Below are positions 25,773 through 57,635 of a stretch of 64,000 nt of DNA, piece after piece. The stretch spans positions 4,615 through 68,614 of the IMG/VR virus record IMGVR_UViG_3300008050_000001; one strand, 5' to 3'. Under the pieces are notes generated by a model. The model did not search any database, was not told the DNA's origin, and saw only the letters and a list, made by a program, of their open reading frames with translations. Each line of letters starts with the position of its first letter. Within the stretch, counting starts at the first letter, position 1. Made by a program: the position numbers and the translations under genes. This stretch comes from a virus.

Positions 25773-26485
25773 TTAGGCTCATAATCCTCTCTAATTGAGA
25801 GTATTCTCTCAGCAGTAGGGTTGCTAATCCCCCTTACTTTTGTAAGAGCCTTCTTGTTAGTCTTCTTCAACAGCAGATTTCTCAAAGAACCGAACTCCTT
25901 TAGCAACGCATGAGCAGAATCTAATGTGACTCCGGGTATTGTTGCTAACATAACTGCCCTATAATCCTCAGAAAAATCTCCACTTCTTCGTATCCTTTTC
26001 TCGGTTGCTATAGCCTTGCTAATTGTTAATTTGGTATGTGATGTGACTATCCAATCTACATAGTCTTCCATAGTAGCGAACTCTATGTATCTAACTTTGG
26101 GGAAACGAGCATACAGATTCAATTTGAAATTACGAATAACACCCTTCATCTTCATTACTTCTTGAGCAACCGTTTTCTTGGTTGTTCCTCTTGTGAAATA
26201 AGGCTTCAATTGGCTACCATATACTGCTAAAATGGGGTATTCGTATGCGTCGCATAGGTCTGCTAATTGTTGGGTTAGATTTCTATTCCTTCCTATACCC
26301 AAAATAGAGCGGTATAGGTCATTTATTTCCTTTGCTTCTACACCCCAACTACCTATCACATAGTCACCCGTTGCTAATCGTTTTACCTTACCAGCACCCT
26401 TGCTGGTGTTATCAGCATCACCTAATCTACCTAACAACAGATGTATGAGTGCGGGGTTCTCTCTGTCGTCTATGTAGACTACCAC
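25766..26485 (-). CDS. XPF/ERCC4 (Hef-like) structure-specific nuclease with HhH motifs
   Basis: IDDRE, GDYVIG, VEAKEINDL (ERKxxxD-type), IPGVT and VRGIS HhH motifs. Confidence 0.9.
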   Translation of the reverse strand: MVVYIDDRENPALIHLLLGRLGDADNTSKGAGKVKRLATGDYVIGSWGVEAKEINDLYRSILGIGRNRNLTQQLADLCDAYEYPILAVYGSQLKPYFTRGTTKKTVAQEVMKMKGVIRNFKLNLYARFPKVRYIEFATMEDYVDWIVTSHTKLTISKAIATEKRIRRSGDFSEDYRAVMLATIPGVTLDSAHALLKEFGSLRNLLLKKTNKKALTKVRGISNPTAERILSIREDYEPNQ

Positions 26486-26521
26486 ACTACTGCGACTTTA
26501 TTACGCCTTAATCAATAGTTG

Positions 26522-26662
26522 CTAATCTCCGCAACAACCGACTACTTTTGTTTTACAGTTCAGACACGCTTTGGAGCCATGAACTTCCACAAACCCTCTC
26601 ATGCTTCCGCAAAAGGGGCAACTTTGCATTATTCTACATTCTTCTGCTTCTCTAATTACCAC
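26522..26662 (-). CDS. Small CPxCG zinc-finger protein (not in ORF track)
   Basis: Hand translation: ...MQSCPFCGSMRGFVEVHGSKACLNCKTKVVGCCGD*. Confidence 0.65.
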   Translation of the reverse strand: MVIREAEECRIMQSCPFCGSMRGFVEVHGSKACLNCKTKVVGCCGD

Positions 26663-27659
26663 AATACCAACAACCTTTACCGTCGCACAAATTATTCTTT
26701 CTATACCAAACCGGCGACGGGTAGCGTTTGTATTTCAGTAGCGACTTAACTGCTTTTCGGGTCACGCTTGCCTTGTAGTCAGACCAGTTCAATGTAGATA
26801 TGAATGAGCAAATCTCATCCTCGATAAATTGCGTTTGTTCGGCCGTTAAGTCCTCAGGGTCAGCATACCACCTAAGGGTAGCCGCCATGTGTTGGCCGAG
26901 CGCAACACGCACATGATGAGGGGGATTAGACACCCGTATAGCCCTCTCTAAGCAGGTAGGGAGGGGAACACTACCCTGAGAGGGTTCGAGGTCGTCAGGG
27001 AGCGTTGTAGAGGCTTCTGTGGGTGCTTCAAACAAATGTTTGTTATCCCTACACCACTTGGTAAGACTGATTCTCTCAGCCAATGGAACCCCATTAAAAG
27101 GATTAAGATTACTCAGGTTTGGGTCAGGTAATTTTGGTATCTTGTAGCCGAAGGGGTCTTGAGAAAACGCTCTTGCGTCAATTGTGACCGCCCACCTACC
27201 CCTTTTGGGGTTATATGTATCGGGAACTCTTGCTAACTTCTCAGGATAACCTACGCCATCTAAGGACACTAAACCTTCGGCCATCTTCTTTTCATAAGCA
27301 TCTAACTTCGTAGCCCAAGCCCTACCAATTACTGGCTTATCAAAGAATTGGTGAACATGGAATCCTCTTCCCGTAGCAACGGCCCTAACATCTCCATCCA
27401 AACGATTTATCAAATTAGCAACATCACTTTTCACTTGGTCCATAGTTAGATTATTTGTAATATCAAAATCCCACCAAGCCCTATCCATAATTGCTGAATC
27501 ATAATCTACCTTTCTATCGTCAAGCAGGTTATCAAACGCATACAGACTGGTGTATGTGGATGATAGGTTTCTAAGCCTGTTGATATATTGGTTGAAATCG
27601 TTTTCTGTAAGGCACAAGGCTCTCTTCAATCCTATTTGTCGGGGAAAAGATAGCAACAT
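26652..27659 (-). CDS. priS: Archaeo-eukaryotic primase: PriS catalytic domain fused to PriL-CTD-like domain
   Basis: WWDFD, TGRGFHVH, RVPDTYN; C-terminal PTCL..PPHHVR...C..C..C. Confidence 0.85.
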   Translation of the reverse strand: MLLSFPRQIGLKRALCLTENDFNQYINRLRNLSSTYTSLYAFDNLLDDRKVDYDSAIMDRAWWDFDITNNLTMDQVKSDVANLINRLDGDVRAVATGRGFHVHQFFDKPVIGRAWATKLDAYEKKMAEGLVSLDGVGYPEKLARVPDTYNPKRGRWAVTIDARAFSQDPFGYKIPKLPDPNLSNLNPFNGVPLAERISLTKWCRDNKHLFEAPTEASTTLPDDLEPSQGSVPLPTCLERAIRVSNPPHHVRVALGQHMAATLRWYADPEDLTAEQTQFIEDEICSFISTLNWSDYKASVTRKAVKSLLKYKRYPSPVWYRKNNLCDGKGCWYCGN

Positions 27660-27661
27660 GA

Positions 27662-27820
27662 TTAGACCACCCTTGTTTCTATTACGCCTTCATGCCCGCA
27701 AATAGAACATCTAGCCGTGATAACTTCTAAAGTTGGGTTATCTTCTTGTCCGGTCACTTGAACATACGATTGTATGTTCTCAAAATCTGCTGAGTCGCAT
27801 TCTTCACATTGTATCGTCAA
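27662..27820 (-). CDS. Zinc-ribbon protein resembling the TFS/TFIIS C-terminal domain (not in ORF track)
   Basis: TTG start after GGTG; MTIQCEECDSADFENIQSYVQVTGQEDNPTLEVITARCSICGHEGVIETRVV*. Confidence 0.65.
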   Translation of the reverse strand: MTIQCEECDSADFENIQSYVQVTGQEDNPTLEVITARCSICGHEGVIETRVV

Positions 27821-28688
27821 AGGTCACACCTGCTATTTCTTCTTCACAGGACATATTGAAAGAACACCATTGAGGGCATCTCCAATCATCCCAATTCATC
27901 TCCCATTCGTGGTTCCTGATGCGCTCAAGAAAAGCCTCGAAGCGGGATTCAAAGGATGATACACTTCTCTTATTAACTTTTTCTACCAAAGTAATGCCGG
28001 CTTCCTTGCCTACCCAAACAGTCTTGCTTTTCTTCGATAGGAGAGATTGTAATAATTTTGAATCTGTTGCGTCGGGAAGAACATAGATAAATCGAGTTGC
28101 TAACTCCCCATCCATGTCGTTGAGAACCATCCTATAGAAGCACAATTCCTTTCTAGTCTTGGAGATTTTACTTTGGTTGCTATTCCCTGTTTTCAATTCG
28201 AGTATTGCTAAAGTTCCATCTTCGTGCCTAACTACACCATCAATCATACCTGTGATAACAATATCATATTTTTCGTTGTAATAGATACGCTTCTTTTCTG
28301 CTTCTACTGGGGGGAAATGTTCGATACCCCATTCTTCTAATCTTCGTTGCTCTAATTGTGCTAATGTTTCAAACACTTCATCCTCAGGGAATAAGGGTAT
28401 TAAGTGGTGTTGACCATCCCATGTTTCGTAGAAATCTTCTAACCCTTGATGAACATAGGTTCCCCTTACCATTGCGTCGCTTGGCGGCATTCTTAGGTCC
28501 TTTAGTATCACCTTATCCCAATAGTATTGACGAGGGCAATACTCGTAATTCATAAATGATGACTTAGATACTCTTAGGACCTTACCCTCGTCTGTGGGGT
28601 CATAGGAAGATAACTCAGACAACTGCTCGTCTGTTGCACATTTCATACAAATCCCAGTATCGGGATGAATAACACAATCACAAGGCAT
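27804..28688 (-). CDS. Cas4/RecB-like PD-(D/E)xK exonuclease with Fe-S cysteines
   Basis: YCPRQY, RGTYVH, GMIDG, ELKTG and CPQWCSFNMSC. Confidence 0.85.
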   Translation of the reverse strand: MPCDCVIHPDTGICMKCATDEQLSELSSYDPTDEGKVLRVSKSSFMNYEYCPRQYYWDKVILKDLRMPPSDAMVRGTYVHQGLEDFYETWDGQHHLIPLFPEDEVFETLAQLEQRRLEEWGIEHFPPVEAEKKRIYYNEKYDIVITGMIDGVVRHEDGTLAILELKTGNSNQSKISKTRKELCFYRMVLNDMDGELATRFIYVLPDATDSKLLQSLLSKKSKTVWVGKEAGITLVEKVNKRSVSSFESRFEAFLERIRNHEWEMNWDDWRCPQWCSFNMSCEEEIAGVTFDDTM

Positions 28689-28769
28689 TTGGATTCCTCT
28701 TACACGGATTGCATATATTTTTTTCTCTCGCGTATAGAACTACCGAACAGATAGAACATAACCTATCGG

Positions 28770-29054
28770 TCATTCTTCCTCTTCCTTCTCATCTATATTC
28801 TTACCACAGAACCTACATTGTAATGTATCAACTTCCATACCCTCTATCAGAGGGATATTGTTCAAAGAACCGCAATTAACACAATTTGCTTGCCTTAATT
28901 TTCCTCTCTCCTTTAGGTCGTGTAGTAATAAGGTAGATACGATATTACACTCGGCAAGGACTACCTGTATTCCTCTATGTAGGTTTTCAATTTGGCTTTG
29001 TATATCAGCAACATCGTTGCTAAGTTCTCTTGTTGTTTTTCTTCTACTCATCAC
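28770..29054 (-). CDS. Coiled-coil plus zinc-ribbon protein
   Basis: CVNCG...CRFCG. Confidence 0.65.
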   Translation of the reverse strand: MMSRRKTTRELSNDVADIQSQIENLHRGIQVVLAECNIVSTLLLHDLKERGKLRQANCVNCGSLNNIPLIEGMEVDTLQCRFCGKNIDEKEEEE

Positions 29055-29349
29055 AATCTCTCCATTCGTATGTCCTATACATCGAAGTGTTCCCAGTAAT
29101 ACCCTTTACCTTAACATGACCAACTGGTTGTATGAATCTACTTCTGCTGAACTTACCTGATAAAGTGGCGGCACAACAACGCATCCTCTTCGCGTAGTAG
29201 ACATTCTCTCTTAGCCAACTTTCTGCTTCTACAGAAGTAAACGGCTTATGGTTTCTTTCTTCCCACATTTGGCGAATCCATTTCAAGGCCCACCATCTTT
29301 CCATTCTGCCTTCCAATCTCTTCATAACCCTATCACCATGCTTGTTCAT
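29044..29349 (-). CDS. Small basic winged-helix-like protein (start may be 29325)
   Basis: PFTSVEA...TLSGKFSRSRFIQPVG...RTYEW. Confidence 0.55.
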   Translation of the reverse strand: MNKHGDRVMKRLEGRMERWWALKWIRQMWEERNHKPFTSVEAESWLRENVYYAKRMRCCAATLSGKFSRSRFIQPVGHVKVKGITGNTSMYRTYEWRDCDE

Positions 29350-31583
29350 ATAAACCCAACAGTTGGTAATCTATGTAGGGCATTGTATATTGGTTGTATA
29401 TCCCACTCAGCCAATTCGTAAAAGGGTTCTATCTTCTTTACTACGAACCTCTCTAAAATATGGTAATGCCCCACAGTAGCAAAGCCCTCTACATCATTTG
29501 GTTCATTAAAAGCAATGTATTTTCCGTTGCTATCTAAGGTCAATAAGAAGGTGCTTCCTTGGCGATAACCCTTACCGAGATTATCATTAGCCCACTTAGC
29601 ACCTGCTGACGCACCCGACAAAACCTTGTATCTACTCAGGTCCTTTTTGAGTTCCGTTTTCATACACAATTCTTCTATAGGATATTTTTCGGCCAACACA
29701 TCTTCGATTATTTCCACTATCTGACGAGTCACATAACCTTGGTCGGAACCTAACAGTATAGATTTAATCACATAGGTTAGCAAGTTCTTGACGAGAGGGA
29801 ACATCTTTGCTTGTTTCAGTTCAATCCCCTTAACATATAGTTCAGTATCATGGGTCTTACCGTCAGACCATTCCACCAAACCGGCATACCTATTCTTCGC
29901 TTTTAGCAACATAGCAGAACACCATTTCTCGAACTCGCACACAATAGGACTCATTGCTTCGTTCAGTTCAGCAGTCAATAGCAACCCTATTTCGGGGTTT
30001 GGAACAACAACAAAGGCAGAATCTGTGTGCGAATACAGGACTTCGTGGCCTCTGTTCTCACATTCTGTTCTTAATCTTTTGAGAGTCATCCGAGATGTGT
30101 ATGTGATAGCCGCCGCTACCTTCGGGTGATAAAGCCCATATTTTGAATCCCCTGCCGCACCATACAAAGAAGCAACCAATGATTTTGTAGCAAATTGTAA
30201 AGCATCATAGCGACTTCTTTCTTCGTCACTTTTAGCAAGCCTAAGTTGTTCTTTGTATTCTTGCCTAAGAGTAGTCATCTTATTCATTTGTCTAAGCAAC
30301 AGACTTGGTTTACCTTGGCTAAAACATACGCCGTTTCCACAATCCTTACCGTTGCTATCTAATGTTTCGTGTCCTATGTTGTGTAAATCAACATTAGAAT
30401 GATACATAGCCTGTATGTCTAGGATAGCAACATTCTCATATACGCCAGCATTGCTAATTTCTATTGATGCTCCATCATAGGGTTCATAGTCGAATTGCGG
30501 TTTGGTTGGTATTCTTAGGTCAAAGTCCTTATCTCTCAGAGCAAGAACAGTTAGAATCTTAGTGATAAATGGGGTGGTTCGTATATCGCAACCAACGATA
30601 TGTTGTATAGCCGTGTAATGTTCTATACAATTATTCAATGAGTTCAATTTAGGCAACAATTTCACATCTTGGATAGCATACGATAGGTATGTTCCAAAGT
30701 CAGAGTAATATGTATCGTGTCCGTCTGCTAACTCTACCTTTGTTTCACCCAAACACTCAGAAGCGACCGTTGCTAACTTCTTATTTGGTAGTTGTCCGTT
30801 CTTCATTACCCATAATCTTGTGAATGATAACATCATATCAACTACATTGATACCACCTATTGGTTGCGCCCACTCACCAAAGGTATACCTAATCCTATTG
30901 ATAGGGGATAGGCTTCTTGGGTCCAACCCGTTTGCTTGGAATCTCTTAATGATTTTTTGAATATCCGCATTAACCACATTCCAACCAGTAATTATGTCGG
31001 GGTCTTGTTTCTTAAGGTGTTTAGCAAATGCCCTTAGCATGGCCTTTTCGTCTTTGAAAGCAATCGCTGGCTTGCTAAGATTGAGTTCTGTTAAACCGTC
31101 AGGGTGATTAAAGCAAGGAAATGTATCATGGTATCCCGCCTCGTAGTCGGGATGAGTAAAGAATACGAAGTAGTCGTTGCTAAAAGTATCATAGACAACC
31201 ATGATTGTTAGTTTCCCCGTATTAACAGACCATTCGCAATCCAAATACCAAGTTCTATGGTTGTAATTGTCGGGTAATAACCCGTTCTCTGCTAACGCTC
31301 TGTTTACATACGGTATGTTTGCTTCCCATGTTTCTAAGTGGGGGAAGGATTGTCTTATCTCATAAATGTCTTCGGGAGTATGGGTATATACCTTAGTTAG
31401 TGATTGACCATAGACCCCCTTATGCCCTGTTTCGTAGCGCAAAACCCCATTGTGTTGTAGGGGAACTGCATTATCTTCTACATAGAAGAATGGTTGGCAG
31501 ATATGTTCCTCTGTTATCCGCTTTCCGTCTTCTTGCCGTCGTCGGATAGTGATTTTATTACGGCCTTTGCGCTCAATTATCAC
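29346..31583 (-). CDS. polB: Family B DNA polymerase
   Basis: Exonuclease motifs YLDCE, ITGWN...D and YAIQDV; polymerase motifs DIQAMYHS, KSLVASLYG, YSHTDS and KNRY. Confidence 0.95.
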   Translation of the reverse strand: MIIERKGRNKITIRRRQEDGKRITEEHICQPFFYVEDNAVPLQHNGVLRYETGHKGVYGQSLTKVYTHTPEDIYEIRQSFPHLETWEANIPYVNRALAENGLLPDNYNHRTWYLDCEWSVNTGKLTIMVVYDTFSNDYFVFFTHPDYEAGYHDTFPCFNHPDGLTELNLSKPAIAFKDEKAMLRAFAKHLKKQDPDIITGWNVVNADIQKIIKRFQANGLDPRSLSPINRIRYTFGEWAQPIGGINVVDMMLSFTRLWVMKNGQLPNKKLATVASECLGETKVELADGHDTYYSDFGTYLSYAIQDVKLLPKLNSLNNCIEHYTAIQHIVGCDIRTTPFITKILTVLALRDKDFDLRIPTKPQFDYEPYDGASIEISNAGVYENVAILDIQAMYHSNVDLHNIGHETLDSNGKDCGNGVCFSQGKPSLLLRQMNKMTTLRQEYKEQLRLAKSDEERSRYDALQFATKSLVASLYGAAGDSKYGLYHPKVAAAITYTSRMTLKRLRTECENRGHEVLYSHTDSAFVVVPNPEIGLLLTAELNEAMSPIVCEFEKWCSAMLLKAKNRYAGLVEWSDGKTHDTELYVKGIELKQAKMFPLVKNLLTYVIKSILLGSDQGYVTRQIVEIIEDVLAEKYPIEELCMKTELKKDLSRYKVLSGASAGAKWANDNLGKGYRQGSTFLLTLDSNGKYIAFNEPNDVEGFATVGHYHILERFVVKKIEPFYELAEWDIQPIYNALHRLPTVGFI

Positions 31584-31893
31584 GCTTCACCCTTCCTCTT
31601 CTTCTCGTTGCTATTCCATGCTTCTTAAGCCATAGATTGATAGTCATTGGAGATACAGCGTATTTGAGAGCAAGGTCTTGCATTGTTTTTCCTTGTTCCT
31701 CATATAGTGAACGAAGAGTATCGGCATCCCTATACCCCCTATCTCTATTGTCTTGTGCGTGGCCGGATATGTTGACTACGAAGGTAGTTCCGCATGAACA
31801 TAGGATAAGATGACTAGATGCACCAACGCCGCACGATATGTCGTATCGCATATCCTTATTACAAGCACTACATCTAAACCTCAACTGGAACAC
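31573..31893 (-). CDS. Zinc ribbon plus HTH DNA-binding protein
   Basis: CSAC...CSCG; LRSLYEEQGKTMQDLALKYAVSPMTINLWLKKHGI. Confidence 0.75.
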   Translation of the reverse strand: MFQLRFRCSACNKDMRYDISCGVGASSHLILCSCGTTFVVNISGHAQDNRDRGYRDADTLRSLYEEQGKTMQDLALKYAVSPMTINLWLKKHGIATRRRGRVKRDN

Positions 31894-32713
31894 CTACCTG
31901 TAATACCAAAGCATCACCATCACTAAACACTAACACATAATTACCTCCATAATCCCTCATGTCGTAGATATACAACCTAATGTCCTCCCCAAAGACGGGA
32001 AGTAGGTTTTCTAAACCACCACCGAACCTAAAGGGTTCCGTTGGTGGATGGTGGGCATGAACAATAGTAGAAGTCTGTCCTTTCAGCGCATTACCAGTCC
32101 TAATGATAGTGCAACCCGCTTGTTCTTGCATACTACAACTTGACTCGTTTTGCCCGTTCAAGTTAGCAACCGACAAAGCATCAACCAACACATCTCTTTT
32201 CAGATTGATAATACATACGGGGCTGTGCTTCTTTCCCTTGGTATCGGTGTAGATAGCCATATTCATATCAAACCGGCTTGCTATTCCGATTGCATCTTGG
32301 TTTTGTTTTATGATTGAATTACGAGAAGAAGGGTAAGCCTTTGCTAAAGGTGAAGACATGAATGTTGTCTGCCTTTTGTTTGAGTAAATTAGCAATTTAC
32401 CATTAGGTTTGTGTGATAGGTATACAATATCACCGTGTGTTTTCAAAGCCCCTATTACATCATTCAGGTTGGGAATACACAATTCGCATTCAACTGCCGG
32501 TTCCTCCAAAGCAATTGGTATATTATGCACACTTGTTATTCCGTCTTTGACTCCGCTCACAATGTTAGCAATCTCCGGCCCGACCTTAATGATACAAGCA
32601 TAGCATTGCGGTTGCTTTGTGCCGCCAACAAATGTTATCCTTCTTGCGGCCTTTAGAGCATCTTGGAGAGCCTTATTCCTAAACGCAACATCATTGTTTT
32701 TTCTTCCGCTCAT
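31874..32713 (-). CDS. Putative PCNA-like sliding clamp
   Basis: About 280 aa alpha/beta pattern in the replisome block with PolB and RFC; divergent. Confidence 0.55.
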   Translation of the reverse strand: MSGRKNNDVAFRNKALQDALKAARRITFVGGTKQPQCYACIIKVGPEIANIVSGVKDGITSVHNIPIALEEPAVECELCIPNLNDVIGALKTHGDIVYLSHKPNGKLLIYSNKRQTTFMSSPLAKAYPSSRNSIIKQNQDAIGIASRFDMNMAIYTDTKGKKHSPVCIINLKRDVLVDALSVANLNGQNESSCSMQEQAGCTIIRTGNALKGQTSTIVHAHHPPTEPFRFGGGLENLLPVFGEDIRLYIYDMRDYGGNYVLVFSDGDALVLQVGVPVEV

Positions 32714-33008
32714 ATATACCTCTCTCCCTATCGCCATATAAACCCCTATACTGTGGTTTTATCTCGTATAGGTTTCTTTGAGAGTTAGTCTTTGCGCGAA
32801 TCACCTTGACTTCTTTCATTCTCGACACTATCGCACCGACCTTAACGGCCGATATGTTAGCAGACCGCCGAGAGTTCCTATTGATTTTGGGGTCACGGTG
32901 CTTTTTGATTATATCAACTATCGTTCTCGCGGGGATTGGTTTATCCACGGTAGAAAGAGCAGTAATTATCCATCGTTTTACGAAATAATTACGCCTCGTC
33001 ATTAGCAT
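32691..33008 (-). CDS. Small basic winged-helix-like protein
   Basis: KPIPARTIVDII...SAVKVGAIVSRMKEV...RNLYEI. Confidence 0.6.
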   Translation of the reverse strand: MLMTRRNYFVKRWIITALSTVDKPIPARTIVDIIKKHRDPKINRNSRRSANISAVKVGAIVSRMKEVKVIRAKTNSQRNLYEIKPQYRGLYGDRERGIYERKKKQ

Positions 33009-33957
33009 CCTCTTCCTTCTTGCCGTTGCCCCAATGCAAGAAAGGAAGCCCATACCATGTGACCTGACCATCATTTACAGTAAGCACATCATGTGTTGTG
33101 CCTAGGTATTCTTGATGAAGACCCTTCATTTCACTAACGGTTGCTCTAACAACCCACTCGTTGCTATTTAGGCTCTTATCAGACCTAACCCCTGCCGCTA
33201 AGTCGCCCTTTTTGCTATATCGAGTAAGCCATATCTGTTGAGAAAACAACCTCTTTGTTCCGTTCTCCCATTCGGGGGCTTCACCAACCTTAGTCAACCC
33301 CTTTTGGCCGTTCCCAATATCCATGTATTCCTTTACATCTTTCAGATGGAAGGTATAGCCAACGAAGGGAACTTGAAGTTGATGCGCTCGGTTGATAACA
33401 TCACGGAACAGTTGGTTTCTTGTTCGCCACTCCTTCTGATTGAAAGCATCCCCCTCTTGCTCTATGACTCCCCTTCTGAGAAGAACCTCAGTCATACTGA
33501 ACTCACACCACTTGAGGAAGGTCGAGCAACCATCTATGATTACTGCCCCTACATCTCCCTTTCTGCTCTGTTCACCTAAGATACGCATGAACCAACTCAT
33601 CTTATCAACCAAAGCAACCCAATTAGTTGAGTTATCTTCGTTGAAGATGGAGGCATCAGCCGCATCATAGATGGGGATGACCTTTATTCGGTTGTTATTT
33701 GGGTAGTTCACCATAACAGTCTGCGACGCGCTATTATCAATATCCAAAATGATAATGTCCTTGTCGGTATTGTTGAGAGCCATATCAATTAGCAACCCTG
33801 TTTTGGCGGTGTTTTCTTTACCAACCGCCGCTATTCTAACTGGGAATTGATTGACCTTTGATTCAGTCAGTAGACCAGTATAGTATTCCTTGTTGTAGGT
33901 AGTCCTTTCTTCAATAGGCTTCTCCGTAGAGGAAGGAACGGCTTGACCCCAAGACAT
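32989..33957 (-). CDS. RecA-superfamily ATPase (AAA_24/Sak4/RadB-like)
   Basis: Walker A GKENTAKT and Walker B VIIDG; adjacent to the SSB-like gene. Confidence 0.7.
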   Translation of the reverse strand: MSWGQAVPSSTEKPIEERTTYNKEYYTGLLTESKVNQFPVRIAAVGKENTAKTGLLIDMALNNTDKDIIILDIDNSASQTVMVNYPNNNRIKVIPIYDAADASIFNEDNSTNWVALVDKMSWFMRILGEQSRKGDVGAVIIDGCSTFLKWCEFSMTEVLLRRGVIEQEGDAFNQKEWRTRNQLFRDVINRAHQLQVPFVGYTFHLKDVKEYMDIGNGQKGLTKVGEAPEWENGTKRLFSQQIWLTRYSKKGDLAAGVRSDKSLNSNEWVVRATVSEMKGLHQEYLGTTHDVLTVNDGQVTWYGLPFLHWGNGKKEEDANDEA

Positions 33958-35180
33958 TACTCCCACCCCTCTACTTCATCGGAGGCCCCTTCGGTTGCCT
34001 CTTCCAATGGAACTTCGGCCGGCTTTAGATTATCCATAACACACCAACCTGTAATACTCATTCTACCGTCACCATCTCTACCCATCCATGCTTGACCGAC
34101 GGCCATAACAGTTGAGCCTACCCCAAAGTCAATGTATTTTTCCTGTGACTTTGGTATCCAAAGGTCAATAGGCATAGATAGACTGGTGTAATCCAAATCA
34201 CCCAAAGTCACTACAAACCCTCCGTTATCCTGAGGGTCAATGTGTAGAACCTCTAAGCGAACTGCACACAAAGCATCCCACTTTTCCTTTTCACCGAGAG
34301 AACCAACATACTCTTCTATCGAGTCAAGACCCTCAAGAGGGGTGACTCCTAAGTCTAATAGGTTCCATTCGTGGGGAGGGGAACCAAACATGGTTGCTAC
34401 TTCGTGGTCATCAGTCCATGTGCTAAGGTCAGCCTTTAGGTAAAGTCTGTCGTTGTTAGCGTTTGCCTTACCTGCGATAAACCCTGTAGTTAGTGTTGGG
34501 AAGGAAGCCCTACTCAACTTACCACTTGCATAGACCTTCATTAGAGAAGGCTCATTATCTGTTCCCTTCTTCCTTCCTAAGAATGTTGATACTCTTTCAG
34601 GTTCTGAAAGCGGCCTTGGTTGACCGTATTTGTAATTAGCATTCCCATTAGGGAATGTAGGCATGGTGTTATTCCATACGCAAGAGAACAGGGTTCCATC
34701 GTTCAAAGTCATGGTGTGCTTAGGTAAATTAGCAACTGTAGATTGGGCTGTCTGCCCTGCTTCAAAGGGCAACTTAGCAACGAGGCTAGGGTTCGCAAGG
34801 CGCGTATACCCACCATCACCCATACGGGTGTAAAGAATCACCTGTCCGTTAGCAACTAAGTTCTCCCTACCGCCGGCATCCAAACCATTGAGTATTCCCG
34901 CAGTCTTATTGTAGGCCATTTCAGCAAAGTCCTTTGCTCTCGGCACACTCAAGAATACTCCTTCATACTCTTCAAGTCCACTTCTCGACAGGGCCATTGA
35001 CCTCTTCCTTACTGTGGAAGAAGCCATCCTCAAACACAAAGTGTTTGCTTCCTCGTCGGTCTTACCTGCCGCAAGGAAATTAGCATGGTGGTCAATCTTG
35101 ACCGCTTCATGCGCTTTCATCAGTTCTTCACTTGTGCAACCTATGTTGGCCGCAATCTTCTCAATCATTCCATCTAACAT
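33957..35180 (-). CDS. Putative OB-fold ssDNA-binding protein (RPA-like)
   Basis: C-terminal OB pattern (VTLGD..IDLW..FGVGSTVMAVG) and an acidic tail. Confidence 0.6.
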   Translation of the reverse strand: MLDGMIEKIAANIGCTSEELMKAHEAVKIDHHANFLAAGKTDEEANTLCLRMASSTVRKRSMALSRSGLEEYEGVFLSVPRAKDFAEMAYNKTAGILNGLDAGGRENLVANGQVILYTRMGDGGYTRLANPSLVAKLPFEAGQTAQSTVANLPKHTMTLNDGTLFSCVWNNTMPTFPNGNANYKYGQPRPLSEPERVSTFLGRKKGTDNEPSLMKVYASGKLSRASFPTLTTGFIAGKANANNDRLYLKADLSTWTDDHEVATMFGSPPHEWNLLDLGVTPLEGLDSIEEYVGSLGEKEKWDALCAVRLEVLHIDPQDNGGFVVTLGDLDYTSLSMPIDLWIPKSQEKYIDFGVGSTVMAVGQAWMGRDGDGRMSITGWCVMDNLKPAEVPLEEATEGASDEVEGWE

Positions 35181-35185
35181 CTATC

Positions 35186-36139
35186 TCACCTATCTGTTGT
35201 AATCTGTCCTAAATCCCATCTCCCTATAAACCCCCTACAAAGCATCGTGCAAAAAGCCCACTTCACTATATCCTCTTGAACGCCATTGATACAATCACGC
35301 TCACAAATGATAGCGGCTTCTACAACCTTCATCTTGGATTCAGGAGTTGCGTCGGAAGAAATAGCAAACGAGAATACTTCTCGGATAACCTTCCGTGTGT
35401 CGTAAGGACTTAGCAACCTAACTGCTGACTCAATGTCCTTATCTCGGAAACACATTCTCAGAAACAATTTGTAATCTAATTGTGAATCCCCCATTGCTAA
35501 AGTGAATCTATCTCTATCATCTACATGAACACAAGACATAGCCTGTAGTGCGTTTATAGCACTCCGTAAATCTCCTGTATGTGCTTTAGCAATCCTGTTG
35601 ATACATATTATGTGCTTCTCGTCAATAGGTATACCCTCGTCTGTTGCTATTTCTAGTAGTGTCGATACCATCCAATCTATGGGGATGGGTCGGAACCTCT
35701 TTACCGAACATCTCGATTGTATCCAAGGTGATAACTTGCTAATATCATTACAAGTCAAAATGAACACACCATCTGCATTCTCTATTACACCTTTTAGTGC
35801 GGATTGGGCGGCGGTTGTTAATTGGTCTGCCTCGTCTAAGAGATAGACAGTCTTCGCGCCCACATTGCACAAAGGGATGATTTCTTCTTCAATGAACTCA
35901 ATACCTCTCATCTTCTTTGTTGAAGCATTGAACTCATGTATAGGCCACCCTATTTCTTTAGCAAATGCTCTCGCAACTGTGGTCTTCCCTGTTCCGGCCT
36001 GTGGGCTGTAGAAAATATAGTGTTGGGGGGATACTTCGCCTTCTACTACTGATTGTAGTTCTGCTATAATTGCATCTTGCCCTGCTACATTCTCAAGATA
36101 AGAAGGGCGGTATTTTTCCGACCATACTGTTTTCAACAT
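35186..36139 (-). CDS. rfcS: Replication factor C small subunit (clamp loader)
   Basis: WSEKYRP, GTGKTT, FNAS, LDEAD, QSRC and GDLRSAIN. Confidence 0.95.
   Translation of the reverse strand: MLKTVWSEKYRPSYLENVAGQDAIIAELQSVVEGEVSPQHYIFYSPQAGTGKTTVARAFAKEIGWPIHEFNASTKKMRGIEFIEEEIIPLCNVGAKTVYLLDEADQLTTAAQSALKGVIENADGVFILTCNDISKLSPWIQSRCSVKRFRPIPIDWMVSTLLEIATDEGIPIDEKHIICINRIAKAHTGDLRSAINALQAMSCVHVDDRDRFTLAMGDSQLDYKLFLRMCFRDKDIESAVRLLSPYDTRKVIREVFSFAISSDATPESKMKVVEAAIICERDCINGVQEDIVKWAFCTMLCRGFIGRWDLGQITTDR
35220..35233 (-). promoter_or_regulatory. TATA-box promoter GGGTTTATAGGGAG
   Basis: Identical 14-mer at 36775-36788 and 43835-43848; upstream of the SSB-like gene. Confidence 0.7.
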
Positions 36140-36754
36140 TCACTCAACCTTCTTGATTTCTACTTGGTTATTTAGCAACCAATCAGTAGTCCATCTTTGA
36201 AGGGCCTCTTGGTCACTAAGGCTACTATCTAACGCTAATGTGTGGTGTGGTAGCATACTCTCTGCTATTGTTAGGTTATCGGGGTCAAGTGCATTTTCGC
36301 TTGGATGCTCTAATGCGGCCTCCGAAGCACCACGACGAAGAAGGGTTTGCGTATCACATACGAGTCTAACGATAAATCCGCCATTTTTGATAATATACTC
36401 TACTTCGTTTGGGTAGCGCACATCATCAATGAATATCACCTTCTTATCAGAGAAGTTCTTTCTAACATCTTTAGAAAGTTGTTCTACCCAATAATCCTTG
36501 CTGATTAGCACTCTTTTACCATGACCAAACGCCTGTAAGATAGGTCGTATTGTTCCTTTGTCGGCGGCTTCTTGGGCCATAAGGTGTGCGTGGGGGTCTG
36601 TGGTGTGACCGAAGAAGGCTTCGGCAACTTCCTTTCTAACATATTGTGCAAAAGATAGAACTGTGCTGTTGTTATTGTAGGCTAAGACATTAGCAAGAGT
36701 GGATTTACCGCTTCGCATCTTTCCTGTTATTCCAATAATTACTGGTGTCGTCAT
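36140..36754 (-). CDS. Deoxynucleoside monophosphate kinase
   Basis: GITGKMRSGKST, SFA, RPILQAFG, IDDVRYPNE and HPSE. Confidence 0.85.
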   Translation of the reverse strand: MTTPVIIGITGKMRSGKSTLANVLAYNNNSTVLSFAQYVRKEVAEAFFGHTTDPHAHLMAQEAADKGTIRPILQAFGHGKRVLISKDYWVEQLSKDVRKNFSDKKVIFIDDVRYPNEVEYIIKNGGFIVRLVCDTQTLLRRGASEAALEHPSENALDPDNLTIAESMLPHHTLALDSSLSDQEALQRWTTDWLLNNQVEIKKVE

Positions 36755-36774
36755 ACCTCTAAGGGGGATAGTTG

Positions 36775-36788
36775 CTCCCTATAAACCC
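36775..36788 (-). promoter_or_regulatory. TATA-box promoter GGGTTTATAGGGAG
   Basis: About 25 nt upstream of the dNMP kinase ATG (leaderless spacing). Confidence 0.75.
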
Positions 36789-37180
36789 TTAATACAATGA
36801 AGACAGATATTACTGTCTTTGGGGAAGATTCTGTGTCTTCCACATTGAGGACACCTTTCTGCTAAGGTTCTCTCTTGAGCGGTCATACAAGACATTGGCC
36901 TCGTTTGTTCTATATCTTCTCGGTTGCTAATCAAATCACGCTTAATGTCGAATACCATGTGTTTTGTTTTGTTCCCGTTTAGTTTCTCTACCTTAGCAAA
37001 GCCTACTGATTCCAATTGAACATTCTTAGCAAGCACACTCGAAAGGCTGTTATCGCTCGGAACCTCTCTGAGAGAGCGTAATTTAGCAAGTTTTTCTGCT
37101 ATTTGTGTCCTTGTTAGAGGCCCTTCTACGAACAATATATCCACGACGAGCCGACGCAACCGCCTATTGTTCGCACTCAT
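36779..37180 (-). CDS. Winged-helix-like protein with C-terminal zinc finger
   Basis: GPLTRTQIAEKL...LSSVLAKN; CPQCG...CLHC. Confidence 0.65.
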   Translation of the reverse strand: MSANNRRLRRLVVDILFVEGPLTRTQIAEKLAKLRSLREVPSDNSLSSVLAKNVQLESVGFAKVEKLNGNKTKHMVFDIKRDLISNREDIEQTRPMSCMTAQERTLAERCPQCGRHRIFPKDSNICLHCIKGL

Positions 37181-37208
37181 CTACCACAGGCAGTTAATTG
37201 CGAGTATA

Positions 37209-37382
37209 TTATTGGTTGTTGAACGAAGATACCCAAGTCCACTCTTCTGTAGTGGGGGATTCTCCGCTACCGACAATACCTCTAAGCCAAATACGGAGTA
37301 AACCAACGCCGAGAGGGATGAAGAAATACGATATAGCAACTATCCAAAACGCGACCCAACAAGCCGCCGCACTTGCGGTCAT
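37209..37382 (-). CDS. Small membrane protein (not in ORF track)
   Basis: MTASAAACWVAFWIVAISYFFIPLGVGLLRIWL...; overlaps the upstream stop. Confidence 0.55.
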   Translation of the reverse strand: MTASAAACWVAFWIVAISYFFIPLGVGLLRIWLRGIVGSGESPTTEEWTWVSSFNNQ

Positions 37383-38023
37383 ATAGAATCCTCCGTTTGT
37401 ATTGTCTTCTTTACTCCTTTAGGTATCAAATCAGGAGCAACTTCTCTCAACTCATTAGCAACCTCTTGTGAATTGCGTATTATGAAGTCAATATACTGGT
37501 CGGATTCTCTAAACAAAGGATGAGAAGTTGGTTTTGTTTTCTTCCCTCCTACTTTAGCAACCTTAGGGTGTGGCTTAACACCAAACGCTACCAAGGCCCT
37601 TACATATTCATCAGGTAAAACCATGTTTGCCTTAGCAACCAAGTTCCAAAGCCGGTAATCTCTGATGTTAGAACAAGCCGCTAAAAGGTAGGGTATAGGA
37701 ACCCTCTGTAGTCGCTTTAGCAACATATCCCTCTGTGGGAATCTATAGATGCCCGAAATAGTTGTGTTGAAGTTCTCCTTTCTTTCTTCCCAATCAACAA
37801 CAACATTCCCCCCACTACCAAATGTTGGTTTTCTATTAGGTGTAATTACCAACCTATACTCAACAGAGGGTGCTAAATCAATTGCTTCTTCTAAGGACAT
37901 ATTGCCGCTTAGAGCGTATGTGACCCCCGCCCCTGTGGGGGGATACTTAAGTCTACCCTGCATATAGACAGTATCGCTGTCTGTATACCTATCAGGCTTG
38001 TTCGTGTAGATAACCACGCCCAT
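37379..38023 (-). CDS. Hypothetical protein
   Basis: 214-aa ORF within the operon. Confidence 0.6.
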   Translation of the reverse strand: MGVVIYTNKPDRYTDSDTVYMQGRLKYPPTGAGVTYALSGNMSLEEAIDLAPSVEYRLVITPNRKPTFGSGGNVVVDWEERKENFNTTISGIYRFPQRDMLLKRLQRVPIPYLLAACSNIRDYRLWNLVAKANMVLPDEYVRALVAFGVKPHPKVAKVGGKKTKPTSHPLFRESDQYIDFIIRNSQEVANELREVAPDLIPKGVKKTIQTEDSI

Positions 38024-39431: not shown

Positions 39432-39538
39432 AACCTATTCCTCTTCCCTACACCTTTCACATATTCCTATCCACAAATCATAAGTATGATTTTCACAATC
39501 TTTGTTTCCGCATTTTTTTGCTATTCTTCCGCTCAAGT

Positions 39539-44318: not shown

Positions 44319-44346
44319 TCCATTAGTTGGTAATACCTGATACTTC

Positions 44347-45700: not shown

Positions 45701-46545
45701 CTTACTACCTCGTCGTCATTCTCATCTGAATCAGGGTCTATCTCTGCCTCGTTCTCAAAATGCCTTTGGAAGGCGGTAGGCATAAACCTCTTGCCCTCAT
45801 CTTCCTCCATAATCTTAGCAATCTCTTCTTCGATATACGGCTCTGCATCTTCGCCCTTTGGCCTGTGCCTTGCTCGCCCACCCATTGGGCCTAGGTTTTC
45901 GTGTAGGAAGGCAAGGAACTGCTCGCATTCCTTTGGTATGTGTTCCTCATCAATAGCAACGAACCCGCGAGCATCCAATATGAATCCGCTTATCCCTGCT
46001 TTTGCGAAGTTCTGTAGAGTTAGTTGCGAACAGGCTAACTTTGTTTCAAACGCAATATCAAGTGCTGTTTGTTTGTCGTATGTCTTTGGTTCGCCTTCTA
46101 CGATTTGAGCAACCATAGGTCGTATTAGCAACTCTTCGTCAGGTATGCTCTCTCCAGTATGTGATGTTATGACTGCATTTTCATATAGTCGTGTGGAGTA
46201 GTGCATGATGAAGGATTCAGGATATACATTGTCCTCGTTGCGTATCATTTCGTATGCCCTATCAATTAGCAAGTGAACCTGCCTAATTTGGGTCATGCTT
46301 AGTGCGTCTGCTATTGCCGAATGTAAAACATTAGGTTCATTTCTGTTAGTCTTCATAATGAACAAACCATCTACAGGGTCTAATGGTAAACCAATGTGAT
46401 GTAATGTCTGCATTAGTTGAACCAAATACCCATAGGCTGTGCGCTTGTCCTTCATGCCGTCGTCGTATGACGATACCAGTTCATCAATCCATTCCTTTAG
46501 CAATTCTAATTCCTTTGGTCTTTCCATATTTATTCCCCCAACCAC
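45694..46545 (-). CDS. Hypothetical acidic protein
   Basis: 283-aa ORF. Confidence 0.65.
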   Translation of the reverse strand: MVGGINMERPKELELLKEWIDELVSSYDDGMKDKRTAYGYLVQLMQTLHHIGLPLDPVDGLFIMKTNRNEPNVLHSAIADALSMTQIRQVHLLIDRAYEMIRNEDNVYPESFIMHYSTRLYENAVITSHTGESIPDEELLIRPMVAQIVEGEPKTYDKQTALDIAFETKLACSQLTLQNFAKAGISGFILDARGFVAIDEEHIPKECEQFLAFLHENLGPMGGRARHRPKGEDAEPYIEEEIAKIMEEDEGKRFMPTAFQRHFENEAEIDPDSDENDDEVVRW

Positions 46546-52325: not shown

Positions 52326-52780
52326 GTTGCTAATTCCACTATGAATAGAAGTTCCTTCTATACATAGTGGGTATGGTTTCTTACTTGGCCGCTTGGTATA
52401 CTTGGTCGCTTGCACTTGGTATACTTGGTCGCTTGGTTAGCGCACACGCGCAAACCCTTAATTTATCAAAAATAAATTAGGACTTTTCCCACGCTTTTTC
52501 GCAAGTTCTGATTGTGATATAGTCTTCTCACCGGCTTTGCATTAACCTCGGTTTCAAAGGTTCTTGCTAGCCGGTGCTAGACCGCAGAGCCGGACATGGG
52601 CTTAGTCCACTAAGAGGGTGGCCTAATCCCCCTCTAACGCGCACGGAATAGGTATCGAAGATACCTATTCGTTGCTAACTGACCTTGCTTTCGCTAGGGT
52701 TCGATTTGAAATGGTTGAATCCACCAAACCGAGAGGGCTTTAGCCCCCTCGGAATGGCTTACGAATGCCGATTTTGGCCT
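52326..52780. other. Non-coding island packed with inverted repeats
   Basis: Stems at 52336-52370, 52459-52479, 52531-52593, 52601-52614, 52646-52670 and 52729-52752. Confidence 0.75.
52392..52435. repeat. 21-bp direct repeat CTTGGTATACTTGGTCGCTTG x2 within a CTTGG array
   Basis: Copies at 52392-52412 and 52415-52435. Confidence 0.85.
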
Positions 52781-55844: not shown

Positions 55845-55865
55845 CCATTCGCGCAGGCACTCGCA

Positions 55866-56610
55866 CTAAAACCTACCGTTGCTATAGCAACTTCATACGC
55901 GGTTTTAGGCCATCTCGACTTGACTCAGGTTTAGGGCAACCGAAAAATTATGCTGGATTAACTCAGAGTTAATCTGCACACGGATATGTTTCAACTGGAT
56001 AATCAAAGATTATCCATTTGAAATCACACATCACGATTTCTCAGCGCGGTTCCACGCGGGTTGCTGAAAGCAACCTTCACACGCAGAACCATAGGAGAAT
56101 GCGTCAAGTCCTCCATTTTTCCGAACCACTTAGAGGCGGTATGTGGCTCACGCAAGACCCTGCTCGCGCACATGGGGCTTCTGATGACCCTCCTGAGCGT
56201 ATGTGCGCCGTCTTCGCGCCTAAGTTCATCGGTTTTCGACCCCTTCTCCAATTCTACCTCCCTAAAGTCTGACTTTAGGAAGGTAGTAGCCGGACCTAAA
56301 AAAGTCCTAATAACTTCGTGACTTACAGTCAATATCTGATTAGAAAGAAGTTGAATTGCTGACCAATCGGCCTCAAATCTAAACAACGGGGCAAGGTTTC
56401 GCCGTAGAAGCCACCTTGACTATATGTTCTGAGGACTAACCCCCTTCACCTTCGGTGCTTCCTTAAGTCAAAAAAAGTTTGAAGAACTCCAACCTTAATA
56501 ACAAGACTCTATCGAAGATAGAGAAAAGAGATTAAAATTAGCATTCGGCTCGAATCTCAAACAGCCTACGGCTGAAATTGCCGTTGCTAAAATCGGAGCC
56601 TACGGCTTCC
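55866..56610. other. Second non-coding island packed with inverted repeats
   Basis: Stems at 55956-55974, 55989-56023, 56059-56075, 56166-56208, 56254-56286, 56507-56523 and 56562-56574. Confidence 0.75.
55878..55891. promoter_or_regulatory. Perfect palindrome GTTGCTATAGCAAC (two head-to-head motif half-sites)
   Basis: Seen directly; nested in a CTAAAACC/GGTTTTAG inverted repeat upstream of the AAA+ gene. Confidence 0.6.
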
Positions 56611-56857
56611 TCTTTCCGATTGCTCCATTTGGAATCCTGATAACTCTGTTATCAGAATCCATCTCTTCAACCAAAATGAGGCATTGAGGACCACCTTTGG
56701 TGAAGTTCATCGGAATCTCAGGATTGCTACGCAAATTGCTGAGGATTCTCAGACCTCTTTTGATTTGGTCTAAAGACCAAATATCCTCCTTTCGTCGTCT
56801 TACGACGAAGTAGACATTCACCATTCTCACTTTTTCCAACTTCTCATCTCCATTCAT
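56600..56857 (-). CDS. Hypothetical protein
   Basis: GGAGGG SD. Confidence 0.6.
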   Translation of the reverse strand: MNGDEKLEKVRMVNVYFVVRRRKEDIWSLDQIKRGLRILSNLRSNPEIPMNFTKGGPQCLILVEEMDSDNRVIRIPNGAIGKRKP

Positions 56858-56871
56858 TCACTTTCCCTCCT

Positions 56872-57382
56872 TCAATCGTAGATTGAATCAACACTACTCC
56901 AGTCATTCAGAAAATTGTCCTTTTCGGCTCGCAGTCTTTCGATTTCGTCTTGTTCAAATGCTTCCATTATTTCAGCCCAATCCTCGTCGGACTCAATCGG
57001 ACAATCTGTGCAAGAATCGACGGTTATTGATGGGTCATTGTCGTGGTAAATCATGGTTTCTAGGATGAGTTCGGTAGCCTCTGAGTCTAGCGTTTCTAGG
57101 TCAACAATCGTGGTCCATGCAATCACTACATCTCCTTCATCGTCTTGAAATCGGCAGAGCAGAATTGCGTCTTCTGAGGTCGGGTCATCGTCATTGTAGA
57201 CCTTTAGGTCTAGTATGTCGAAGTGAGGCCATCGGTTGACGGGTATGTCGAACCAATAGCCCTCAGAGGGAAGAAAAATTGCTCCCTCATCGGGTGGTCT
57301 TTCGGATATTGGAACCCTAAAGGGTTCCACATCGTCGGCATTTTCGGGTATATCGTCGCTCCAGTTCGGCATTTTAGCCATG
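56872..57382 (-). CDS. Highly acidic hypothetical protein, first gene of the leftward arm
   Basis: D/E-rich; probable start at MAKMP (~57381); the ORF track starts it at 57399. Confidence 0.6.
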
Positions 57383-57635
57383 TTCAACCGTAAGCACATG
57401 AGAACTTCAACTTATGGTCAACCCAAAACAGGCTCTCAGTCCATCGGTTTTGGTCGTTTTAGCAACCGAAATAGCAAGCAAAAATTGCCGCCAAAAATTG
57501 ACCCCTCGGTGAGGTGGTTGGTCGCCAACCCCCTTTCAAAATATACAATAATTTTTTTCAAAACCGCTAAATCCCCCATAAACAATATAAAACTTACATA
57601 ATCTTAATAAATCAAACGAATACTCGTTAATCTAT

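Follow-up and report, generated by a model that had tools for sequence, protein, structure and literature searches.

A hyper-abundant, lineage-switching DNA word in a tailed marine virus genome: a possible recognition signal for a sequence-specific protein

The genome of the virus IMGVR_UViG_3300008050_000001 (G000; a single contig of 68,614 bases) carries, most densely in its replication and early arm, a short dispersed DNA word, TAGCAA (TTGCTA on the opposite strand; hereafter the core), which frequently stands within the octamer TTAGCAAC. We analyzed a stretch of 64,000 of these bases (positions 4,615 to 68,614 of the record; hereafter the window, whose coordinates are used unless the genome is named). 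The abundance of the word, the selection upon it, and its replacement by related words in sister lineages give it the look of a signal for a protein reader; the reading we favor, with a probability of roughly 45%, is that it is a selected, lineage-switching recognition word of a sequence-specific protein, acting through many weak and additive sites. For comparison we used a complete relative (G002), 89.5% identical across 57 kb, a sister lineage (G001) with 64% identity in the family B DNA polymerase (PolB), and two control genomes (G003 and G004) with about 50% PolB identity that avoid restriction-type sites equally. A clade-specific HNH endonuclease gene served as bait for recovering more lineages.

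The octamer TTAGCAAC occurs 61 times on the two strands of the window and the core 221 times, against 2.37 ± 1.58 (largest 9) and 39.3 ± 5.3, respectively, in 100 dinucleotide shuffles; the whole genome holds 226 copies of the core, where an order-1 Markov model predicts 42.1. An earlier note, made from the letters of the window, had described the motif as recurring on both strands, within genes and between them, and these counts bear it out; every coordinate it gave was right, including the 11 core matches within 43450-44815. Expectations for the octamer rise with the order of the Markov model, from 2.3 at order 1 through 11.7 at order 3 and 44.3 at order 5 to 61.3 at order 6. As the order-6 model reproduces the observed octamer count (61.3 against 61), both flanking bases are independent given the core. 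A T precedes the core in 122 of the 221 copies and a C follows it in 111; these flanking bases are preferences rather than part of a rigid octamer. The word escapes Markov models of maximal order, whose parameters already contain it, and such models were rejected as a null. Under them, the top 6-mer of the window is ACCTGC/GCAGGT (55 against 29.4 expected). The collagen-like repeats (308-8079 and 18783-25772) over-represent words of their own, CCAGTAGG (33 against 1.8) and GGTCCTACTG (15 against 0.1), which compete with the motif in k-mer rankings.

Synonymous codon shuffling within genes, without further constraint (200 replicates), yielded 12.5 ± 2.2 octamers and 74.8 ± 6.7 cores. A constrained version used a Markov chain in which 93 zero-count words were forbidden and 78 under-represented ones capped (27 samples from one chain, 2.6 million proposals); it yielded 19.7 ± 3.1 octamers (maximum 26) and 102.5 ± 6.4 cores (maximum 116). 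Codon shuffling with the avoided sites forbidden was the check that the earlier note had named, and the observed 61 and 221 lie 13 and 18 standard deviations above this null. Comparison of the two shuffles indicates that avoidance raises the expectation about 1.4-1.6-fold and leaves a 2-3-fold excess. The note's own caveat, that avoidance of AGCT and GTWAC could inflate the motif, was therefore correct in kind, but the inflation is too small to explain the counts.

The word is present in every reading frame that it can occupy without creating a stop: TAGCAA occurs 65 and 40 times in its two frames, TTGCTA 43, 52, and 3 times in its three, and a further 18 copies are intergenic, so that, as the earlier note had argued, no single peptide is being written. 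Orientation is even, both in the genome (118 plus, 108 minus) and relative to genes (108 sense, 107 antisense); the cumulative orientation walk is flat, and 80 of the 158 copies between 26 and 58 kb (summed by hand) lie on the plus strand. In the early arm the density is 5.08/kb in genes and 4.20/kb between them. Codon choice bends to the word: of 147 Leu-Leu pairs, 43 are encoded as TTG-CTA, although codon usage would give about 4.6%, and in the sister lineage G001, whose word is TTGCAA, Leu-Gln pairs are encoded as TTG-CAA in 66 of 90 cases, where about 18% are expected, even though the alternative encodings of both pairs are non-forbidden words. In the dense zone defined below, 183 of 458 synonymous opportunities for the word (40%) are filled, against 5-20% for nine control word pairs that are not absent from the genome. 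Spacing is Poisson-like, with a coefficient of variation of 0.98 and a largest gap of 1242 bp, and regular spacing or arrays were ruled out on these figures. Taken together, these observations support the view that the word is a DNA-level signal, for which neither a peptide nor codon usage nor avoidance alone can account. It works on duplex DNA, independently of orientation and in genes and spacers alike.

Comparison with the close relative G002 reveals that the individual sites are held in place. Of 202 windows containing the word, 169 are unchanged, while the rate for all 57,278 6-mer windows is 57.8%; among 119 common words, TAGCAA ranks third in conservation, and the overlapping TGCTAA ranks first. 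Fourfold-degenerate sites differ between the two genomes at 8 of 172 positions (4.7%) within the word and at 979 of 4381 (22.3%) outside it (Fisher p 3e-10), and for every codon type the change within the word is two to four times smaller than elsewhere. Losses of the word (33) and gains (34) are in balance. The conservation was replicated in three other lineage pairs, counting those of the sister word TTGCAA, which is kept at 80 of 82 and 74 of 74 sites, against 90.6% and 88.7% of all windows, so the expectation of the earlier note that synonymous positions of the motif should be conserved in relatives was borne out. A directional force thus holds the word, as seen in its approximately 5-fold lower synonymous divergence and in the 40% of opportunities filled in the replication arm. 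None of the one-base neighbors of the word is depleted apart from the forbidden TTGCAA, TAGCTA, and TGGCAA; outer-position variants show a mild enrichment. Vsr-like directed repair was considered and rejected, as no specific neighbor word is depleted; this pattern goes against a ratchet that repairs from a single precursor and favors a recognition sequence with slight degeneracy.

Variation within populations was surveyed in four marine runs other than the source, which over positions 26000-45999 hold only 17 variant positions; none of these falls in the 99 core sites there, where about 0.5 would be expected (hand check), a comparison that rests on few variants. In one of the marine runs (X5), 64 nt are swapped for 19 other letters within 43575-43640, and another (X4) has a 9-nt deletion at 44521 with three substitutions nearby.

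The word changes between lineages. In G001 (66.7 kb), TAGCAA is at background (44 copies), and the palindrome TTGCAA takes its place with 213 copies against 29 expected; the same palindrome reaches 185 copies in G005 (51 kb) and is wholly absent from both G000 and G002. The lineage represented by loci L076 and L077 (G006) uses GTTGCTA/AGCAAC, with TTGCTA enriched 6.4-fold, a saturation of 32-39%, and 27 of 44 sites conserved against 32%. In G007, G009, G010, L081, and L090 the word is TGCGCA, accompanied by TTGCGC and CTGCGC, at a saturation of 40-64% and in all three frames; TGCGCA sites are conserved in 46 of 62 cases against 42% and in 21 of 24 against 28%. The lineage of L083 and L084 (G008) enriches TTGCGA about 4.3-fold, at a saturation of 23%. 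No such dispersed word was found in the more distant HNH-bearing viruses. The words of other lineages are mostly rare or absent in any given genome, with the exceptions that TTGCAA fills 16-33% of opportunities in L080, L081, L083, and L086, and TTGCTA/TAGCAA fills 17% in L084. The lineage words TTGCTA, TTGCAA, TTGCGA, and TGCGCA/TTGCGC form one family built on a TGC core and joined as a one-step network; at least three related words, and probably four, replace one another.

Copy number is nearly constant, at 168-226 per 61-71 kb, across differing words, GC contents, and genome lengths (G000, 226; G002, 224; G001, 213; G006, 198; G007, 196; G010, 178; G009, 168), and the genic density of the early arm is 5.09/kb in G001, next to the 5.08/kb of G000. 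This constancy hints at either saturated opportunities or a set point.

The word stands in a genome from which many restriction-type words have been purged. AGCT, GATC, GTAC, and ACGT are absent from the window, with 144-262 copies expected of each, as are nine 5-mer pairs (CCWGG, GCWGC, GTCTC, GGGAC, CASTG, GTWAC, TGWCA, CCAGA, and GGACG). The genome lacks 48 of the 64 6-bp palindromes, TTGCAA among them, along with degenerate or asymmetric words of the restriction type (RAATTY, CYCGRG, RGCGCY, GAGGAG, and CCCAGC), while the palindromes CAATTG, CTATAG, GTATAC, TAATTA, and ATATAT are untouched. In the controls G003 and G004 the same 4-mers are at zero and 47 of 64 palindromes are missing, yet TAGCAA numbers just 81 per approximately 70 kb in each, their PolB loci hold 22 copies against 17.0 expected and 20 against 14.1, and no dispersed word was found in either. 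Their top word, CTACAA (half of the palindrome CTACAAATTTGTAG), was considered as a third variant and rejected: it is confined to one block of about 10 kb and is unconserved (12 of 47 sites, 25.5%, against 26.2%), and its saturation of 25% lies near the 8-18% of other genomes, which marks it as a different phenomenon.

These results bear directly on the possibility that the word is a compositional by-product, in which approximately 170 avoided words, together with codon usage and protein composition, would funnel the sequence into a few 'safe' words. Avoidance does lift both shuffle expectations, as given above, AGCA is the most enriched 4-mer and stands beside the forbidden AGCT, and the enrichment grows gradually with Markov order. 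Against this, the counts exceed the constrained null by the margins stated, the controls share the avoidance and have no dispersed word, the sister lineages enrich a palindrome that is forbidden in G000, synonymous sites in the word are conserved 5-fold, and the three forbidden single-base neighbors mean that the word is not mutationally safe. We regard such an origin as exceedingly improbable.

The avoidance itself varies in ways worth recording. Among G000-G008 (L058-L073 and L096-L107) the avoided set is lineage-specific, even between close relatives: CTAG has 57 sites in G000 and none in G001 and G002, TGGCAA occurs once in G000 and 27 times in G002, and G006 avoids only AGCT and GATC among 4-mers and still lacks 42 of 64 palindromes. 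These sets look like a record of differing host restriction repertoires. In the clade at about 50% PolB identity (L006-L015, L037, and L042-L044), only AGCT and GATC are avoided and no word is strongly enriched, and ACCTGC/GCAGGT exceeds expectation about 5-fold (32 against 6.0, for example). In G003 (44-54 kb) and G004 (64-72 kb; L068 and L073), the 14-bp perfect palindrome CTACAAATTTGTAG or its halves reach 16-34 half-sites per 2 kb, in a block that is largely intergenic in G003 and is not conserved between the two. Words resembling TATA boxes and A/T runs are also depleted (TTTAAA 0; TTATAA 1-2 against 28; CTTATA 1 against 45; TTAAAA 9 against 66; TAAAAA 10 against 66), which could reflect avoidance of spurious archaeal promoters or further restriction sites.

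The genome is complete, as judged by a direct terminal repeat of 123 bp at both of its ends (genome positions 1-123 and 68492-68614). Its structural side comprises genes for collagen-like proteins, tail tube, tape-measure protein, portal, and terminase, and its replication genes are archaeal in style: a family B polymerase whose best named relatives, at approximately 23% identity, are haloarchaeal tailed viruses, an RFC-type clamp loader, an ERCC4-HhH nuclease, and a PD-(D/E)XK nuclease. The same set includes an HNH endonuclease, an Mre11-like phosphoesterase, and a deoxynucleoside monophosphate (dNMP) kinase. The virus was detected in several marine metagenomes, and the Poseidoniales host suggested in the earlier note is plausible; a search of the virus sequence found no tRNA genes, and a scan of genome contigs with the RFC-like protein returned an unrelated bacterial one as its sole match. 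Along this gene order the word is distributed in zones:

25766-57480, both strands: dense zone, the minus-strand replication/early arm, with about 5 cores per kb (8-14 per 2 kb)
15208-25772: intermediate zone, the tape-measure gene and a giant tail gene of 2329 amino acids, with 5-10 cores per 2 kb
1-15207: first part of the sparse zone, with collagen-like, capsid-region, and tail-tube genes and 1-7 cores per 2 kb
57950-64000: second part of the sparse zone, with terminase, Mre11-like nuclease, and portal and 1, 2, and 1 cores per 2 kb

Genes of the dense zone mostly have 50-86% of their synonymous opportunities filled (orientations merged), those of the intermediate zone 13 of 32 and 21 of 47 (the tape-measure call coming from Pfam PhageMin_Tail), those of the first sparse part 14-56% per gene and mostly no more than 33% (collagen and tail tube being Pfam assignments), and those of the second part 1 of 10, 1 of 5, and 1 of 8, a density close to background. 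The edges of the dense zone are not sharp, the stretch from 16 to 25.7 kb being intermediate, and the sparse zone is continuous across the terminal-repeat junction. The octamer follows the same pattern, with 49 of its 61 copies in 25780-57480, 12 before, and none after (none lies past 57466); the positional gradient that the earlier note had looked for, with a motif-rich replication/early arm and sparser collagen and portal regions, is thus present. Dense and sparse zones differ in saturation in G000 (183 of 458 against 30 of 180 opportunities, p 9e-9) and, for TTGCAA, in G001 (141 of 182 against 59 of 129), the same regional pattern recurs in G001, G002, G006, and G007, and per-gene saturation is correlated between orthologs (Spearman 0.55, p 0.013, n 20).

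Two explanations of the sparse zone were examined and set aside. A conflict with codon usage was rejected, as the relevant codon frequencies are equal once the codons of the word are masked, and recent import of the sparse module was rejected, as identity to G002 is uniform at 89-91%. With neither explanation at hand, the per-site benefit of the word, or its exposure to the force that maintains it, must vary by region. Every lineage tested shows the same order, with the strongest force on the replication/early arm and the weakest on the head and packaging module.

Several local arrangements within the window, most of them pointed out in the earlier note, were mapped:

55878-55891: exact head-to-head double site GTTGCTATAGCAAC, upstream of the AAA_5 gene starting at 55844
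37455-37724, plus strand: cluster of four perfect copies of TTAGCAAC, at 37455, 37554, 37632, and 37717
34729-34856, plus strand: cluster of three perfect copies of TTAGCAAC, at 34729, 34774, and 34849
52336-52370: hairpin with 16-nt arms, 94% complementary, adjoining the word copy at 52326-52333
52641-52675: hairpin with 16-nt arms, 88% complementary, whose 3' arm overlaps the word copy at 52671-52678

The two hairpins are those that the motif was said to flank, one adjoining its copy and the other overlapping it. The double site GTTGCTATAGCAAC is the sole exact match in the window; five further matches need two mismatches. The palindrome at 55878 and the half-site GTTGCT resemble the half-site of the eukaryotic RFX X-box, a likeness that the earlier note had raised. 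Homology to that system is not borne out: the RFX domain (PF02257) was found in none of five viral genomes at E values up to 0.1, one exact dyad compares with about 225 single words, the half-site GTTGCY is missing from both TTGCAA and TGCGCA, the words of the sister lineages, and the winged helix encoded here, described next, matches Cdt1, Zur, MarR, and PadR.

A search for candidate readers compared gene presence and absence across eight genomes, six bearing a word and two word-less controls. Seven genes were detected in each of the six word-bearing genomes and in neither control: those for the dNMP kinase, the protein at 37992-38366, a 252-amino-acid protein, the HNH endonuclease, the AAA_5 ATPase, a 76-amino-acid open reading frame, and the Mre11-like nuclease. 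As this correlation is one phyletic contrast in eight genomes, it provides leads only. The features concerned, together with a small zinc ribbon that enters below, are:

37992-38366, minus strand: small winged-helix protein, a lead as candidate reader from its gene presence pattern and an AF2 model
45155-45700, minus strand: HNH endonuclease (PHROG 5200, E 2.4e-44), clade-specific among the eight genomes
42625-43383, minus strand: clade-specific protein of 252 amino acids, with no Pfam or PHROG matches
27662-27820: zinc-ribbon open reading frame of 52 amino acids, found in G000, G001, and G002 and undetected in G003 and G004

The AF2 model of the 37992-38366 protein has a core pLDDT of 83-90 and a helix-helix-helix-hairpin layout; its Foldseek matches are the winged-helix domain of Cdt1, Zur, MarR, and PadR, with weak scores (best E 8.4e-4), and its Pfam matches are all sub-threshold. 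The putative recognition helix is identical in three TTGCTA genomes and different in TTGCAA, TGCGCA, and TTGCGA genomes, a pattern that phylogeny alone would also produce. By fold prediction and phyletic pattern, then, this clade-specific protein is a candidate reader of the word. Its open reading frame overlaps that at 38236-38583 by 131 nt in a different frame; in G001 and G006, the corresponding N-terminal region of 35-40 codons has two in-frame stops, 26 codons apart, which suggests that the annotated product of 124 amino acids is really its C-terminal part of about 87. The 252-amino-acid protein gave a poor model (pLDDT 59.7) and no structural match.

The DNA methyltransferase families PF01555, PF00145, PF02086, and PF02384 were found in none of five viral genomes, in searches that each matched their control genomes. 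This result speaks against, but leaves standing, the note's alternative of a favored modification site, and it weighs on a process like that of the cyanobacterial word HIP1, in which the viral word would be the target of a (host-encoded) methyltransferase and would be maintained by a methylation-dependent mismatch-repair ratchet or by selection, its switches tracking switches of host or methyltransferase. Six-base palindromes and asymmetric hexamers are the usual format of restriction-modification sites, which favors such a process. Among the hallmarks of HIP1 described by Elhai 2015 and Xu et al. 2018 are hyper-abundance, conservation of sites, lineage replacement, and one-base variants at the outer positions, and all of these are seen here. 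Yet beyond the lack of a cognate methyltransferase, TAGTAA stands at 0.86-1.22 of expectation and TTGTAA at 1.56, unlike a Vsr-type ratchet on methylated C; a genome-wide enzyme poorly explains a conserved 2-4-fold difference between replication arm and head module at equal codon usage; and the extreme avoidance of sites suggests that the DNA is unmodified at entry. As an account of the word in this virus, we hold a HIP-like process to be unlikely.

As a parallel, HIP1 (GCGATCGC) and the alternate HIPs remain close. These words resemble ours in being hyper-abundant in all frames, conserved in site, replaced between lineages, surrounded by enriched one-base outer variants, and set in genomes under heavy restriction-modification pressure, and their function is debated. 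By the measures used for HIPs, the word is over-represented (226 against 42.1, and 2.2-fold above the constrained codon null), its sites are conserved at the rates reported above, and alternate words (TTGCTA, TTGCAA, TTGCGA, and TGCGCA) occur across lineages. HIP1 differs in being a GC-rich palindromic octamer of a cellular cyanobacterial chromosome, whereas TAGCAA/TTGCTA is asymmetric, of 6-8 bp and 33% GC, in a tailed virus of about 68 kb; it is not a palindrome in G000, although palindromic hexamers do occur as sister words (TTGCAA and TGCGCA). Here, moreover, there is a bias toward the replication arm rather than a periodicity over tens of kilobases, and the word of the sister lineage has been purged.

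A second known parallel is Chi. According to Zheng et al. 2025, the phages LLS and P1 and lambdoid phages without Rec modules are rich in Chi, which is their most frequent oligomer, and in LLS 20 of 23 Chi sites share one orientation. These phages resemble the present virus in having, in a viral genome, a short word far above chance, unevenly placed and not explained by codon usage. Chi, however, is polar, about 10 times sparser, set by the RecBCD of the host, and the same word across the hosts of a clade, whereas our word is orientation-neutral and lineage-specific in a virus with its own nucleases. A Chi-like role would have the word attenuate or redirect a helicase-nuclease of host or virus (Cas4-like, Mre11-like, or XPF), so that the first-entering replication arm is shielded or recombination-dependent replication stimulated. 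The virus does encode PD-(D/E)XK, ERCC4-HhH, and Mre11-like nucleases and a dNMP kinase, and the early-arm bias would suit protection of the first-entering DNA. The lack of strand polarity, in the genome as in the 26-58 kb interval, speaks against it, as do the palindromic form of two sister words and a spacing of one copy per 0.2-0.3 kb, some 10 times denser than the one per 1.9 kb of Chi-rich phages; to our knowledge, no RecBCD/AddAB-Chi system occurs in archaea. We therefore consider this role decidedly unlikely.

Even strand balance would also fit a third role, in which the word is a template signal of a viral primase, perhaps through the zinc ribbon at 27662-27820, its frequency on both strands being selected for lagging-strand priming. 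A spacing of about 200-400 bp per strand is on the scale of archaeal Okazaki fragments, phage primases recognize template words of 3-5 nt, and the phyletic pattern of the zinc ribbon is as listed above. However, replication spans the whole genome, yet saturation in the head and packaging genes is 2-4-fold lower; six to eight fixed bases exceed known primase words; and the neighboring 335-amino-acid 'primase' has no Pfam or PHROG support. A primase signal thus appears very unlikely.

The earlier note had likened the motif to dispersed sites of the parS, matS, and DNA-uptake types, an analogy that fails by copy number, length, or context. ParS, matS, and SlmA-type sites are palindromes of 13-16 bp that serve a DNA-binding protein (a dimer at parS and matS) and are scattered through part of a chromosome in anything from a few to a few dozen copies, whereas here about 225 copies of 6-8 bp, with one exact 14-bp dyad, are scattered at the irregular spacing given above. 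The uptake sequences (DUS/USS) of Neisseria and Haemophilus, which occur at about 1 or more per kb in both orientations and several frames and form lineage dialects, share with our word its presence in both orientations, within genes in several frames, and as dialects; they differ in being 9-12 bp long, in naturally competent bacteria, and read by an uptake machinery, and the virus has no such uptake step.

Turning to the favored reading, a sequence-specific DNA-binding or DNA-processing protein, most likely encoded by the virus, would recognize the word, its specificity drifting in single-base steps, and each copy would bring a small, additive, and local gain to the replication/early arm. The non-palindromic TTGCTA would occupy the role that the palindrome TTGCAA has in the sister lineage. 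Since TTGCAA has been purged from this genome like 47 other 6-bp palindromes, the switch plausibly took place under restriction pressure, and the asymmetric TTGCTA is a plausible restriction-proof substitute for the palindromic word. For the inference of the earlier note that the motif marks binding sites, this means that a DNA-level, selected, early-arm signal stands; the coating, protecting, segregating, or importing that it envisaged stays conjectural. A more elaborate version, a 'genome identity word' system in which a virus-encoded reader and a 6-bp word co-evolve, with the winged-helix protein as first candidate, seems to us doubtful. Under it, the word would fill most synonymous opportunities of the replication/early arm because each copy would aid that DNA in cis, for instance by marking, activating, or shielding the first-entering arm, in a virus unable to modify its bases; once host restriction came to cut the current word (for example, TTGCAA), some 200 sites would be rewritten and the reader retuned by one base, and such rewriting would yield the network TTGCAA / TTGCTA / TTGCGA / TGCGCA.

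Several points weigh against the favored reading. The samples of the constrained null (27) are autocorrelated, and avoided words longer than 6 bases or gapped are ignored by it. Density in spacers is no higher than in genes, and the irregular spacing and single exact palindrome are not what a cooperative coat or a dimeric regulator predicts. In 47 codon-aligned ortholog pairs of G000 and G001 (median amino-acid identity 55%), 21 of 145 word sites coincide with TTGCAA, where 0.6 are expected (maximum 3 in 500 permutations); 20 of these 21 are hydrophobic-Ala-X triplets in which Ala is conserved, the flanking residues differing in 12, so the coincidences show each lineage writing its own word where the protein allows and do not prove that the single sites are ancient. 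The switch between TTGCAA and TTGCTA may have run in either direction. The winged-helix and HNH genes and five others track the word as a single evolutionary contrast, no reader protein was identified, and the conservation seen would look alike under selection and under a repair process that rebuilds the word. The reader or writer may also be encoded by the host, or the word may mimic one of the host.

Our literature search, which covered openly accessible papers, turned up no published account of words like these in viruses of archaea or of the sea, and the main texts of two magrovirus papers (PMC5434244 and PMC11706807) contain no passage on restriction, palindromes, or avoidance. What is new here is that sister lineages of these viruses each carry a related word of their own, in roughly equal numbers of copies.

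HIP1, Chi, and uptake words have been described in cells, Chi also in some phages, and the function of HIP-like words has been open for decades. The same phenomenon is now found in a small and compact viral genome, with natural negative controls, a regional gradient, and seven co-occurring genes, which makes the question tractable: a few proteins and three oligonucleotides suffice for a binding test, with the word swaps between lineages as controls of specificity. In this virus, positive selection of a word and extreme avoidance of restriction sites jointly shape one genome, which bears on host prediction from k-mers, on the evolution of synonymous sites in viruses, and on the survival of unmodified viral DNA in restriction-rich hosts.

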